Source: a virus
Virus genome (UHGV): UHGV-1515682
Reading direction: 5' to 3' (one strand)
Length of the DNA stretch: 40,877 bases
The notes beneath the pieces were generated by a model that searched no databases, was not told the origin of the DNA, and worked only from the letters and a program-made list of their open reading frames with translations. Position 1 is the first letter of the stretch, and each line of letters opens with the position of its first letter. Shown in pieces: positions 6,337 to 9,708 of this stretch. The translations under genes and the position numbers were made by a program.

Positions 6337-6921
6337 TTATTGTTTGCTTTTTTCGTTCTGGTTGATGACAAATTCAATGTAACTTTCGATCTTTGCTTTC
6401 TCTGTTTCAGGTAACAATGCGTAGCGCGAGCGGTCATAGTTGATAGTTGCAGGGTCGTGCGGGTGAATCAGTAGTTCATATCCGTGACGCCCGAATGCAG
6501 ATGCAACATTCTCCAGGGTGGAAATGGAAACGCTGACCTCATTGTTTAACAGGCGGCTGATTGTCACCTGGGCTACGCCGGATGCGCGGTGAAGTTTTCC
6601 CTGTGTTGAAAGGTCGCGGCTTTCGCTCATCCAGCGTTCCAGGTTGTGAGCCGCCAGCTGGCCAATGTCGCTTGGGCCGACAGGCTGAAAACCTTCCTGA
6701 GAAAGCGAGCGATCGATATCAAGCCAGTTACGGGGTTTATTGGCGGCAGCTTCAATTTTTCGTGCAACCTGGTCGCCGATAACCTTCTTGCCAAGAGCCC
6801 AGCGGTTTACCAGATTTGCCTGAGTTCCAAGTTTTTCTGCCATCCGCGTCTGAACACCATTGAATTCACGGTCGATCAAGTCGTTGAGATTTTGCCTGCG
6901 GACGTCCTGGATACTTTTCAT
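6337..6921 (-). CDS. CI-like repressor with two HTH (XRE-type) regions and no recognisable S24 peptidase domain
   Basis: 194 aa; two XRE-like HTH stretches (…TRMAEKLGTQANLVNRWALGKK… and …ASGVAQVTISRLLNNEVSVSISTLENVA…); divergent from cro-like gene across an operator-rich intergenic region; no S24-like Ser/Lys motifs. Confidence 0.65.
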   Translation of the reverse strand: MKSIQDVRRQNLNDLIDREFNGVQTRMAEKLGTQANLVNRWALGKKVIGDQVARKIEAAANKPRNWLDIDRSLSQEGFQPVGPSDIGQLAAHNLERWMSESRDLSTQGKLHRASGVAQVTISRLLNNEVSVSISTLENVASAFGRHGYELLIHPHDPATINYDRSRYALLPETEKAKIESYIEFVINQNEKSKQ

Positions 6922-6993: not shown

Positions 6994-7008
6994 GCACCTC
7001 ATGGGTAA
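6994..7008. promoter_or_regulatory. Degenerate dyad site gcacctcatgggtaa (OR region)
   Basis: Half-site GGTAA with weak left half, 17 bp from site at 6977. Confidence 0.25.
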
Positions 7009-7021
7009 CTATCCTTGATTT

Positions 7022-7050
7022 TTGTTACCTTATGGGTGAATATTTATTAT
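7022..7050 (+). promoter_or_regulatory. Putative rightward early promoter (PR-like): TTGTTA-17-TATTAT
   Basis: -35 7022-7027, -10 7045-7050; dyad site 7025-7039 lies between the hexamers. Confidence 0.4.
7025..7039. promoter_or_regulatory. Dyad operator-like site ttaccttatgggtga (OR region)
   Basis: TTACC-N5-GGTGA (one mismatch), overlapping predicted PR spacer. Confidence 0.5.
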
Positions 7051-7075
7051 CTGAAATAAATATCAGGCAATAGCT

Positions 7076-7306
7076 ATGAGCGATAACGGACATTTCGATT
7101 TCAAAAAGCACTGGCTTGCACTTACTCCGGATGAGCGTGAAGCCTTCGCACAGGAAGCCGGAACGACGAGTCACTATATCCAGACTCACTTAACAGGTAA
7201 GCGCAAAATGCCAGGTAAAGTATTGATGAATGGGCTTTTTAAAGCCTGTAAAACAAGACAATGGCTGCGCTCAAAAGCAGAACTGGCATACTTCTTCTAC
7301 TCATGA
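7076..7306 (+). CDS. Cro-like small HTH regulator (YdaS/Cro-type)
   Basis: 76 aa; first rightward gene opposite repressor; HTH-like segment AFAQEAGTTSHYIQTHLTGKRKMPG. Confidence 0.55.
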   Translation: MSDNGHFDFKKHWLALTPDEREAFAQEAGTTSHYIQTHLTGKRKMPGKVLMNGLFKACKTRQWLRSKAELAYFFYS

Positions 7307-7327
7307 TATCCAGCTACAACCCTCTGT

Positions 7328-7351
7328 AGACCGCCACCCGGCGGTCTTTTC
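7328..7351 (+). terminator. Rho-independent terminator after cro-like gene
   Basis: agaccgcc-accc-ggcggtct hairpin followed by tttt. Confidence 0.65.
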
Positions 7352-7361
7352 ATATCTATTC

Positions 7362-7376
7362 GTACCTCAAAGGTAA
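7362..7376. promoter_or_regulatory. Dyad operator-like site gtacctcaaaggtaa
   Basis: GTACC-N5-GGTAA (one mismatch) just after cro terminator, upstream of replication genes. Confidence 0.45.
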
Positions 7377-7456
7377 TAAATAACCAAATCTGGTTGATAT
7401 TTTTTTTGTGTCAGCACAAAATAACCGTAATCCCAATACTAATAGCAGGGCTTACC

Positions 7457-7657
7457 ATGGAAATCATTACACGTATTGATGCCGCAAAGCGCGGACTTAA
7501 ACGCTACTACACCGGAAAAACATGTAAGCACGGACATGACAGTGAACGCTGGGTTTACAACGGACACTGTGTTGAGTGCACCATGGAATCAAACCGTCGT
7601 ATCAGGGCAGAGATTAAGCAGATCATGATTAATTCCTCCCCACAACATTCAAGCTGA
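7457..7657 (+). CDS. Hypothetical small zinc-binding protein (66 aa)
   Basis: C-x-H...C-x2-C ligand pattern (CKHGHDSERWVYNGHCVEC); start at internal ATG 7457. Confidence 0.45.
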   Translation: MEIITRIDAAKRGLKRYYTGKTCKHGHDSERWVYNGHCVECTMESNRRIRAEIKQIMINSSPQHSS

Positions 7658-7672
7658 TAGCGGAGATTAATC

Positions 7673-8464
7673 ATGAGCAGACATGCAACAGATTGGGCCT
7701 GGGAGACAGATCCAGGTAGCTCGTCATTAAAGCTCATACTGCTCTCGATGGCTGACAGAGCCGATGAATATAACCTCTGCTACCCCAGCATAGAACGCCT
7801 CGTTAAAGACACTTGCCTGAATAAAAAAACCGTGCAGGCCGGACTTATATCGCTCATGAAAATGGGGCTTATTTCAGATACCGGAGAGAGAAAGGGAGCG
7901 ACGAAAAGAGTGCGGGTTTTCTCTCTTAATATAACCAAAAACGGGAACATTAAAGGCAACCGGGAAGGGGGTAATGAACCCGAAAACGGTAATGTTACCG
8001 AAAACGGGAATATACCCAAAAACGGGATGTTGAATGATCCCAAAAACGGGATCCAGAACCAGTCATATAACCAGTCATTTAACCAAGAGAGGGAGAGCAG
8101 GACAAAAACCGGGGATTCTGTTCCTCATGACCCCGGCGCAAACAACGCCGTGATGAATAACTTTGTTCCTCCTGGTGGGATAGGGCAATTAGGAAAATTT
8201 GTCATGCATGAACAATGGCAGCCATCAGATGACTTTCTTCGGAAAAGCTCATTGCAGGGAATCTACCTGGACAGTCTGCCAACGGCACAGGAACTTGCAG
8301 AGTTCAGAATTTACTGGATGGCTGAGGGTAAGGCATACCATCAGGCACAGTGGGAGCAGAAGCTGGCAAGGCGGCTGCAGATTAGCAGACAGAAGCAATC
8401 AACATTACCTGATAACAACGTTCCGCACTGGAACAGCCCTGAAGCATGGGAGGATTTCTTGTGA
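7673..8464 (+). CDS. Replication initiator, lambda O-like, with iteron-encoded repetitive linker
   Basis: 263 aa; N-terminal winged-helix-like region resembling lambda O N-terminus; central NGN/KNG repeats encoded by DNA iterons; followed by P-like gene. Confidence 0.65.
   Translation: MSRHATDWAWETDPGSSSLKLILLSMADRADEYNLCYPSIERLVKDTCLNKKTVQAGLISLMKMGLISDTGERKGATKRVRVFSLNITKNGNIKGNREGGNEPENGNVTENGNIPKNGMLNDPKNGIQNQSYNQSFNQERESRTKTGDSVPHDPGANNAVMNNFVPPGGIGQLGKFVMHEQWQPSDDFLRKSSLQGIYLDSLPTAQELAEFRIYWMAEGKAYHQAQWEQKLARRLQISRQKQSTLPDNNVPHWNSPEAWEDFL
7935..8052. repeat. Origin-like iteron array (five copies of CC(C/G)AAAACGG(G/T)A) inside the O-like gene
   Basis: Copies at 7935, 7978, 7997, 8015, 8038 followed by two accagtcat repeats; same arrangement as ori-lambda inside gene O. 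Confidence 0.6.
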
Positions 8465-9246
8465 ACAACGTTTTTACCGCGATACAAAACCGTGACGGAG
8501 AAGCCCTTTCTCGCATGTCAGGTTATGAGCATCAGTACGTCAACAATGACAATGTGGTTAACATGTCAGCAGAGAGGCTTGTTGATGCCCTTTTCAAACA
8601 GCTGAAACAACTGTTTCCGGCGGCAGTGGTAACCAACCTGAAGACGCCAGAGCAGGAAGTAGCTGCAAAACAGCAGTGGATTGCTGCGTTTGCCGAAGGG
8701 GGGATCCGAACCCGTGAACAGGTTTCTGCTGGTATGCGCCACGCCCGCGCCAGTGAATCTCCGTTCTGGCCGTCGCCTGGGCAATTCATCAAGTGGTGTA
8801 AAGACAGCAAGATGGTTCTTGGCGTCACCATTGACGATGTGATGGCGGAGTTTCACCGGTACAGCAAGGAAAAAAGTTTATATCCTGGTGGTCCCGAAAG
8901 ATTCCCGTGGCGACATCCGGTTATGTACTGGGTCGTATGTGATACCCGCCGTGCAATGTATCAGCGCCAGCTTAGCGAGATTGAGGTTGAGAAACACGCG
9001 CGCAGGCTGCTCGATGATTGGGCGAAAAAGGTGGCTTCCGGACAGCAGATACCCGATCCGGTGATCAGCATACAGGCAAAGCCAGAACCCATGAGTACAC
9101 CTCCGGACACAGGGAGAGACGTTTACCATCCACCAGGGCGAAGTTTCGGGTGCATGCCTAACGCCGCCACCCTAGGGGGAATAACACCGGCGCAGTGGCT
9201 GATGGAGGAATACAGGCGGGGAAAGGCGGCAGGATTTATCAAGTAA
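8461..9246 (+). CDS. Replication protein P-like helicase loader
   Basis: Recalled similarity to lambda P (FPAAVVTNL…QQWIAAFAEGGIRTREQVSAGMRHARASESPFWPSPGQFIKWCKD); GTG 8461 with GGGAGG RBS preferred over ATG 8446. Confidence 0.65.
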   Translation: MNNVFTAIQNRDGEALSRMSGYEHQYVNNDNVVNMSAERLVDALFKQLKQLFPAAVVTNLKTPEQEVAAKQQWIAAFAEGGIRTREQVSAGMRHARASESPFWPSPGQFIKWCKDSKMVLGVTIDDVMAEFHRYSKEKSLYPGGPERFPWRHPVMYWVVCDTRRAMYQRQLSEIEVEKHARRLLDDWAKKVASGQQIPDPVISIQAKPEPMSTPPDTGRDVYHPPGRSFGCMPNAATLGGITPAQWLMEEYRRGKAAGFIK

Positions 9247-9251
9247 TACCA

Positions 9252-9270
9252 GCGCGATAGCGCATTTTTT
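9252..9270 (+). terminator. Possible terminator after P-like gene
   Basis: Short gcgc-gata-gcgc hairpin followed by T7. Confidence 0.4.
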
Positions 9271-9283
9271 TACGTCTCAATGA

Positions 9284-9298
9284 TTACCTGATGGGTAA
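9284..9298. promoter_or_regulatory. Dyad operator-like site ttacctgatgggtaa
   Basis: Perfect TTACC-N5-GGTAA; 62 bp upstream of site 9346. Confidence 0.5.
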
Positions 9299-9317
9299 TA
9301 AAATATCCTAAAATCTA

Positions 9318-9346
9318 TTGATTTCGTGTCTTATGTGGTTTTTAAT
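9318..9346 (+). promoter_or_regulatory. Putative promoter TTGATT-17-TTTAAT for nin-like operon
   Basis: -35 9318-9323, -10 9341-9346, bracketed by two dyad sites. Confidence 0.4.
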
Positions 9347-9360
9347 TACCTTAGAGGTAA
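9346..9360. promoter_or_regulatory. Dyad operator-like site ttaccttagaggtaa overlapping -10/RBS of gene at 9364
   Basis: Perfect TTACC-N5-GGTAA; right half doubles as GAGGT Shine-Dalgarno. Confidence 0.5.
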
Positions 9361-9363
9361 ATC

Positions 9364-9708
9364 ATGAGAAAACAGATACAGGCTCTTGGTCGACTCAAAA
9401 CAGGCCAGATGAACAAAACAGAATCTGCGTATTGCCAGCACCTTGAGCAGCGTAAACGTGCAGGGGAAATCGCCTGGTATCGATTCGAGGGTATCAAGCT
9501 GCGGTTAGCTGATAACACGTTCTATACGCCAGATTTTGCTGTGATGCTCGCCACCGGAGAGATGGAACTGCACGAAGTGAAAGGTTTCTGGACCGACGAC
9601 GCCAGGGTGAAAACCAAAGTCGCCGCAGATCAGTATCCGTTCCGAATCATCGGTGTAACGGTTAAACCAAAGAAAGCAGGTGGTGGCTGGAACATCGAAG
9701 AGTTCTGA
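9364..9708 (+). CDS. Hypothetical phage protein, possibly DUF1064-like
   Basis: 114 aa ORF with RBS; domain assignment from recalled family resemblance only. Confidence 0.45.
   Translation: MRKQIQALGRLKTGQMNKTESAYCQHLEQRKRAGEIAWYRFEGIKLRLADNTFYTPDFAVMLATGEMELHEVKGFWTDDARVKTKVAADQYPFRIIGVTVKPKKAGGGWNIEEF

Follow-up and report, generated by a model that had tools for sequence, protein, structure and literature searches.

We analyzed a DNA window of 40,877 nucleotides (the whole stretch of the virus genome UHGV-1515682), which, judged by its similarity to known genomes, is a phiV10-like (Uetakevirus, epsilon15-like) Escherichia coli phage genome, and examined a repeat array inside its replication initiator gene as a candidate replication origin. 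The positions of the genes, domains and repeats are collected in Table 1. Pfam placed an HTH_36 domain at amino acids 18 to 67 of the initiator (E = 1.7e-10) and a DnaT DNA-binding domain at amino acids 176 to 244 (E = 1.1e-15). Using phmmer against the PDB, we found that amino acids 172 to 257 matched 6aep, 9zbt, 4ou6 and 2ru8 (E values from 7e-21 to 2e-19), aligned with DnaT residues 85 to 170 and about 50% identical to these residues of the E. coli and Salmonella proteins. The repeats occupy amino acids 88 to 127, after the HTH_36 domain, whose conservation extends to about residue 86, and before the DnaT-like domain. The initial annotation had likened the product of the next gene to lambda P, and Pfam Phage_lambda_P (E = 1.5e-56) and 31% identity to lambda P over 203 amino acids (E = 5e-36) bear this out; an alternative in-frame start of this gene is the ATG at 8446. 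Upstream lie a divergent repressor gene with two helix-turn-helix motifs (6337-6921, minus strand), a cro-like gene (7076-7306) and a small open reading frame (ORF). The order repressor, cro-like gene, small ORF, initiator and P-like gene is the lambdoid early-right layout.

To define the repeats, the iteron pattern CC[A/C/G]AAAACGG[G/T]A was searched by exact matching over both strands of the window. Five matches were found, all on the plus strand, starting at 7935, 7980, 7998, 8016 and 8040, with start-to-start spacings of 45, 18, 18 and 24 nucleotides (nt). First-order Markov simulation of the window gave an expectation of 0.03 exact matches per window for both strands together, and in none of the simulated sequences did a 120-nt stretch contain more than one, while the window holds five in 117 nt of one strand. 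The same search found no second iteron cluster anywhere in the window. The repeats reported inside the initiator gene are thus real and beyond chance, although only the first of the five positions first given for them was exact, copies 2 to 5 each being 1 to 2 nt off. The consensus first proposed holds overall, but its third position, written as C or G, was imprecise: three copies read CCAAAAACGGGA, and iterons with this reading become CCCAAAAACGGGA when the start is taken one base earlier. With their flanks, the iteron units span about 21 nt and follow (T/G)AAT..CC.AAAACGG.A. Iteron 5 contains two GATC sites (8036..8053), and the phiV10 counterpart of the degenerate copy at 7960-7973, CCGAGAGGGGG, matches a relaxed pattern. 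All five iterons are read in one frame, as TKNGN, PENGN, TENGN, PKNGM and PKNGI (xKNGx / xENGx), and they encode an inter-domain linker, as had been claimed. At 7980-8009 the window also reads ACCGAAAACGG(T/G), a consensus papillomavirus E2 site (ACCG-N4-CGGT, with an A-tract spacer; PMC10095481). The E2 site ACCGAAAACGGT was the sole sequence coincidence from the literature search and was treated as chance; the likeness is presumably a coincidence, or else the two have converged on a dimer site whose A-tract can bend.

The two further repeats in the initial annotation, 'accagtcat', were recovered as AACCAGTCATAT at 8057 and AACCAGTCATTT at 8069. They belong to an array with a period of 12, scored as 2.4 copies by Tandem Repeats Finder, whose third unit (8079-8092) is degenerate. 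The segment 8053-8095 is 56% AT, and the iteron block is flanked by two local stability minima, since the 40-mers 7921-7960 and 8051-8090 lie at the 95th and 93rd percentiles of low duplex stability for the window (AT of both minima, 56-58%). The top strand across the array has 43% A versus 15% T. No DnaA boxes or consensus sites for integration host factor were found in 7400-9400. The 12-mer array (8055-8092) is a candidate unwinding or helicase-loading zone.

Table 1. Features of the candidate origin region, and dispersed dyads, in the window
Feature	Position	Strand	Basis or remark
Replication initiator gene, 263 amino acids	7673..8464	+	ORF; HTH_36, repeat-encoded linker, C-terminal DnaT-like domain
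HTH_36 helix-turn-helix and following strand/wing, amino acids 18 to about 86	7724..7930	+	presumed iteron-binding domain
Iteron 1, CCAAAAACGGGA	7935..7946	+	pattern match
Degenerate iteron-like copy, CCGGGAAGGGGGTA	7960..7973	+	read from sequence, between iterons 1 and 2 (45-nt gap); weak evidence
Iteron 2, CCCGAAAACGGTAA	7979..7992	+	pattern match
Iteron 3, TACCGAAAACGGGAA	7996..8010	+	pattern match
Iteron 4, CCCAAAAACGGGAT	8015..8028	+	pattern match
Iteron 5, GATCCCAAAAACGGGATC	8036..8053	+	perfect 6-bp dyad arms around A-tract, GATCCC-AAAAAC-GGGATC
Three tandem 12-mers, AGAACCAGTCAT, ATAACCAGTCAT, TTAACCAAGAGA(GG)	8055..8092	+	directly after iteron 5; AACCAGTCAT type
Degenerate iteron	8083-8094	+	overlapped by last 12-mer unit
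DnaT C-terminal-like domain, amino acids 172-257	8186..8443	+	phmmer against PDB
Lambda P-like helicase-loader gene	8461..9246	+	GTG start overlapping initiator stop codon, as annotated in phiV10
TTACC-N5-GGTAA copies	6203, 6265, 6977, 9284, 9346, 12780, 16316, 33673, 34712, 34805, 35925		

Over this region, identity to phiV10, phiv142-3, PAS61 and other Uetakevirus E. coli phages is 96-98.5%, and the initiator gene is 93-99% identical to the genes of the phiV10 group. Among 80 near-identical viral contigs, the iteron count ranged from 3 to 9 with a mode of 6 (58 contigs), and exactly the layout of the window was present in six. In most aligned relatives the sixth iteron is a duplication of the 24-bp iteron 5 unit, and phiV10 has a third AACCAGTCATAT (AACCAGTCAT-type) unit; the differences among close relatives are whole repeat units. 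Lambda has four iterons and the Shiga toxin phages have six (PMC7466680). Two circular records from duck E. coli, filed as 'plasmids' of 41,027 bp, each hold a complete phiV10-like genome with six canonical iterons and the degenerate copy. Two other records stood apart. YDC107_2 (CP025713.1, 14199-16798) has single-base length changes in the iteron A-runs, which look like homopolymer sequencing errors, and its initiator and P genes are fragmented. In Escherichia phage BP9 (PP488543.1, 134437-137010), classified as a Vequintavirus of 138 kb, an initiator/P module of phiV10 type (98.5% identical) lies close to the right end; this may be a chimeric assembly or contamination.

Such drift of copy number among near-identical phages is expected of any tandem repeat, and it was proposed as an alternative that the array is only a slippage-prone, low-complexity linker rich in N, G and K, with no role as DNA. 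The single frame and the similar peptides of the five window copies fit this alternative, and so does the protein consensus of the family, which also contains PKNG and QNxSxEP. To delineate the two possibilities, we turned to distant relatives. The N-terminal 90 amino acids of the initiator are represented in 567 clusters at 50% identity (E <= 1e-10) and 3,775 at E <= 1e-3, and the domain is always at the protein N terminus. From this family we took 80 loci in genomes of different species (Vibrio, Pseudoalteromonas, Acinetobacter, Marinomonas, Providencia, Edwardsiella, Desulfovibrionaceae, Burkholderiaceae, Sphingomonadales and others), with N-domains 40-87% identical to that of the window.

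In the 420 nt after the domain, a de novo search recovered one 11-mer at 3 to 10 copies in most loci, compared with 1 or 2 copies in control DNA (3 in one locus), and the recovered 11-mers were variants of (ACAGT)CCCAAAAACGG. Over the 370 nt that follow the domain, the density of the core CCNANANNGG was 10.1 per kb on the coding strand and 0.83 per kb on the opposite strand, compared with 0.15 per kb elsewhere in the loci, a strand-specific enrichment of 67-fold just after the N-domain. At least three core copies were present in 61 of the 80 loci, and the dominant spacings were 24, 17 and 18 nt. Such comparisons with relatives, which the initial annotation had called for, fit its reading. In 50 of those 61 loci the copies stand in two or three reading frames and encode different peptides. 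The PPompW prophages and Edwardsiella phage GF-2 illustrate this, an identical CCCAAAAACGG encoding TQKR in one copy and PKNG in another. The core flanks were complementary beyond the expectation from base frequencies (for the pair -2/13, 183 observed versus 113 expected), and they change in step between lineages, as GTACC..GGTAC, GTCCC..GGGAC and ACACCC..GGGTGT. Since the core appears in several frames, on one strand and with dyad-symmetric flanks, it is the DNA and not the peptide that is conserved, as fits a protein-binding DNA site. The window iterons are moreover nearly identical to the gp15-binding sites of phi80, despite no detectable similarity between the protein sequences. A linker with no function as DNA is thus extremely unlikely.

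A second element follows the iterons in the distant loci. In 59 of the 72 unique loci the last iteron was followed by at least two GAAYC pentamers 9-14 nt apart, and in 44 loci by at least three; the spacings were 12 (53 cases), 13 (42), 11 (6) and 10 (2), and no such arrays were found in control DNA. An A-rich run such as AAAAATAAAAA often lies 3' of the array. Since its period does not keep to multiples of three, the GAAYC array is likewise a DNA element, of which the AACCAGTCAT 12-mers are the local version in the window. Its position and 12/13-nt period are reminiscent of the 13-mers in the unwinding elements of oriC, as an analogy only.

This element bears on the possibility that the iterons are initiator sites with a mainly regulatory role, in autorepression, as a transcriptional roadblock or in copy control by handcuffing, with initiation elsewhere. 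Plasmid iterons do double as copy control elements (PMC4980987, PMC5397158), and no strongly AT-rich tract lies beside the window repeats. However, the same arrangement is the origin in lambda and phi80 (PMC7466680), the 12/13-mer array after the last iteron resembles an unwinding or loading zone, and the window has no second iteron cluster. We consider a mainly regulatory role unlikely.

We then examined whether the functional origin could be the AT-rich intergenic segment 9247-9363 after the P-like gene, leaving the intragenic repeats auxiliary or vestigial. This segment is 67% AT, contains the least stable 40-mers in 7000-9400 and has two dyads, ATTACC-N5/6-GGTAA. These dyads, however, belong to a family of palindromic 15-mers, TTACC-N5-GGTAA, with 11 copies in the window versus 0.12 expected (no shuffle had more than one). 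Two of the copies are just downstream of the repressor 3' end (6337), one is in the gap between the repressor and the cro-like gene, two follow the P-like gene and six are elsewhere. The family resembles a group of scattered operators, bound by the phage repressor or by some other dimeric regulator, and its CC-N5-GG architecture is distinct from the CC-N6-GG of the iterons. Because the family is dispersed genome-wide, including both sides of the repressor gene, the dyads of 9247-9363 look like operators as well. The segment has no iteron-core matches, and in phiV10 the corresponding stretch contains an annotated terminator and the point where the next operon begins. An origin in this segment is very unlikely, and neither the regulatory nor the intergenic alternative explains the conserved architecture of iterons and 12/13-mers.

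The initiator protein is itself modular. Amino acids 18 to about 86 are the only part conserved family-wide, with nearly invariant DTGERKG and RV motifs. Among 118 family representatives, HTH_36 was present in all 118, the DnaT domain in 17 and Phg_2220_C, the C-terminal domain of lambda O, in 2, the other C termini being unannotated; the gene after the initiator encodes a DnaB-like helicase in AP22 and P in GF-2. SPN1S and TL-2011b, which have a DnaT-like C-domain behind an unrelated N-domain, served as a negative control, with no bearing on where their own origins lie, and have no comparable repeat array; in TL-2011b the P gene segment is 98% identical. The N-domain and the iterons thus travel together, as expected if the N-domain is the binding partner, as in lambda O. 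In Edwardsiella phage GF-2, an HTH_36 N-domain and CCCAAAATTGGG iterons are joined to a lambda/phi80-type continuation, and GF-2, lambda and phi80 have GAGAATTCTG(A/G)CGAATCCTC almost exactly in common, immediately to the right of the origin in each. The sharing of segments among these three phages suggests recombination breakpoints inside the origin.

Members of the phiV10 group carry the labels 'putative primosomal protein', 'primosomal protein I', 'DnaT' and 'replication initiation protein'. The public names 'primosomal protein I' and 'DnaT', and one 'pyocin large subunit-like' from the Joint Genome Institute (JGI), reflect only the C-terminal 85 amino acids. The first two are misleading, since the DnaT N-terminal domain is absent and HTH_36 and the iterons stand in its place; the PDB matches cover only amino acids 172-257, and amino acids 1-90 are HTH_36, so that the protein is not an ortholog of E. 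coli DnaT. No match to Rep_3 or related plasmid Rep families was found by Pfam at E <= 0.01, a sub-threshold RP-C match in one homologue being the only plasmid-Rep trace. A homologue search with the initiator protein returned only near-identical E. coli variants, and AlphaFold2 on the single sequence gave a mean predicted local distance difference test score (pLDDT) of 37.

The module is also found in small replicon-like records. pZ1323HEC0067-2 (NZ_CP148379.1) is an 8,461-bp circular E. coli record with an N-domain 49% identical to that of the window. Its module consists of a dicA-like repressor gene, cro, ydaT, an HTH_36-DnaT gene in which four iterons are spread over two frames, and P; the PLSDB gene tables, which are incomplete, list no other replication gene for it. 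An 8,600-bp linear Klebsiella record (NZ_CP130688.1) has the same type of repressor/cro/ydaT/HTH_36-DnaT/P module. Besides the module, the two records hold only defence or insertion sequence (IS) genes, and each initiator gene contains 4 to 5 iterons. They could be natural lambda-dv-like replicons or artefacts of assembly. The circular record hints that a related module may replicate on its own, and the two circular phiV10-like records from duck E. coli are a similar hint, both as weak evidence.

Taken together, these results point to the array as the probable vegetative (theta-type) replication origin of this temperate podophage of the phiV10 type, laid out as in lambda. The reading of the array as iterons inside the initiator gene, of the ori-lambda type, is supported by its position, its likeness to the phi80 core, the variation by whole units and the frame-independent conservation. 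In the proposed mechanism, transcription from the early rightward promoter would provide the initiator and the P-like protein. The N-terminal winged-helix (HTH_36) domains would bind, probably as dimers, the five (to seven) dyad iterons that the initiator gene itself contains, each with a CC-N6-GG core around an A-tract, to form an O-some-like complex. This nucleoprotein complex would destabilize the adjacent low-stability 12-mer segment, the DnaT-like C-domains would engage the exposed single strand, and the P-like protein would deliver the host DnaB helicase.

Several observations weigh against this proposal. None of the relatives' records examined annotates an origin or repeats here, and full-text literature searches found no experiment on phiV10-group origins and no description of this origin. 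The single frame shared by the five copies means that selection on the DNA and on the peptide cannot be separated from the window alone, and the counts over the 80 distant loci are not phylogenetically independent, since Acinetobacter is over-represented. The 40-mer over the 12-mers, at its 93rd percentile, is not extreme, the least stable 40-mers being those of the intergenic segment, and the lack of a strongly AT-rich unwinding tract leaves the site far less striking than that of lambda. An artefact of assembly could also underlie the small circular record. The relationship of the proteins is remote: BLASTP of the window initiator against phi80 gp15 gave E = 22, and hhalign of the 118-member profile against lambda O and gp15 gave a probability of 24.8% (E = 7.9e-4), while with a profile of five sequences and lambda O alone it gave nothing significant (probability 4.5%). 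The larger-profile alignment pairs amino acids 18-86 with lambda O 34-118; it runs co-linearly through the winged helix and, in both proteins, stops just short of the segment that the iterons encode. Of the earlier description of the protein as O-like, the architecture and this remote similarity stand, but the Pfam family does not: the protein is HTH_36 with a DnaT C-terminal domain, and Phage_rep_O (PF04492), which matches lambda O (6e-36) and phi80 gp15 (6e-25), has no match in it.

A bolder and rather doubtful idea is that the HTH_36 initiators and lambda O/phi80 gp15 derive from a single initiator-iteron system and that, in addition, the DnaT-C fusion acts as a 'phage DnaA'. The recognition code (CC-N6-GG, A-tract, then GAAYC array) may have stayed near-fixed while the proteins diverged beyond the reach of BLAST, and the HTH_36 group comprises at least 567 clusters at 50% identity from Gamma-, Beta- and Alphaproteobacteria and Desulfovibrio. 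As for the second part, N-domains on the iterons may position a C-domain filament on one strand of the 12/13-mer array, and the P-like loader may then deposit DnaB at the place that this DnaT-like filament marks. In DnaT itself, the filament that the C-terminal domain builds on single-stranded DNA marks a helicase-loading site (PMC13377028).

The analysis would locate a likely origin for the phiV10 group, whose public records leave it unannotated and mislabel the initiator as 'primosomal protein DnaT'. phiV10 is a reporter and typing phage for O157. For hundreds of prophage lineages, the analysis offers a rule for finding the origin: CCNAAAANGG repeats, then GAAYC 12/13-mers, directly after the HTH_36 domain. 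It also connects the iteron of phi80 and lambda with a far larger family of initiators, and the natural fusion of an origin-binding domain with the DnaT domain that forms filaments on single-stranded DNA provides a system in which to study how helicase-loading sites are marked by DnaT-type domains.

Among known systems, phi80 is the closest in its iterons. The phi80 record annotates four gp15-binding sites, TTCCCGAAAACGGGAA and variants (TTCCCGAAAACGGTA), in codons 122-147 of gene 15. In both phages, the initiator gene contains four to five direct repeats directly after the winged-helix domain, the spacing is about two helical turns, and a P-type loader (phi80 gene 14) is translationally coupled downstream. 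The core is nearly identical, TTCCCGAAAACGGGAA in phi80 versus CCCGAAAACGGTAA, TACCGAAAACGGGAA and GATCCCAAAAACGGGATC in the window; iteron 2 (CCCGAAAACGGTA) equals phi80 site 4 over 13 nt, and iteron 3 agrees with phi80 site 2 at 14 of 15 positions. In contrast, gp15 is a Phage_rep_O protein with a lambda-type C terminus, whereas the window protein joins HTH_36 to a DnaT C-terminal domain. In phi80 and lambda the iterons are followed by an AT-rich tract and the conserved GAGAATTCTG-CGAATCCTCTGAC, where the window has the AACCAGTCAT 12-mers instead. A match of window 8108-8131 to the lambda/phi80 GAGAATTCTG..TCCTCTGAC (about 16 of 24 positions with one gap, by eye) was dropped as too weak.

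The lambda record has four annotated 18-bp iterons, ATCCCTCAAAACGAGGGA, in O codons 117-145, after the Phage_rep_O domain (22-115). Lambda resembles the window in its origin in the middle of the initiator gene, in iterons with inverted arms around an A-rich centre (ATCCCTCAAAACGAGGGA), in its A-rich top strand and in the early rightward order repressor, cro, (cII), O, P, with the P homologue at 31% identity (PMC7466680). It differs in its 18-bp iterons with longer arms, in its pronounced AT-rich unwinding tract and in the O C-terminal domain, which is Phg_2220_C (PMC5509034) and not DnaT-like; the window protein in turn has no Pfam Phage_rep_O match. By HHpred, Brezellec et al. (2017) had found an HTH_36-type domain at the lambda O N terminus (PMC5509034).

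DopC and DopE of Cellvibrionales and Oceanospirillales are chromosomal, domesticated phage O/P genes with no iterons in the gene (PMC5509034). They share with the window an HTH_36 and DnaT-C protein followed by a lambda-P-like protein, but the window represents the phage version, in which the iteron array is intact. E. coli DnaT has the same three-helix C-terminal domain that binds single-stranded DNA, and a helicase-loader gene is next to it, as in dnaT-dnaC; the window protein, in contrast, lacks the DnaT N-terminal domain and has the sequence-specific HTH_36 and the iterons instead. An origin embedded in an initiator gene is thus a known arrangement, and what is new is an unannotated example in an HTH_36 and DnaT-C initiator with iterons closest to those of phi80. 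It goes beyond the textbook case in the family-wide conservation of the iteron core and GAAYC array and in the fusion to a DnaT domain.

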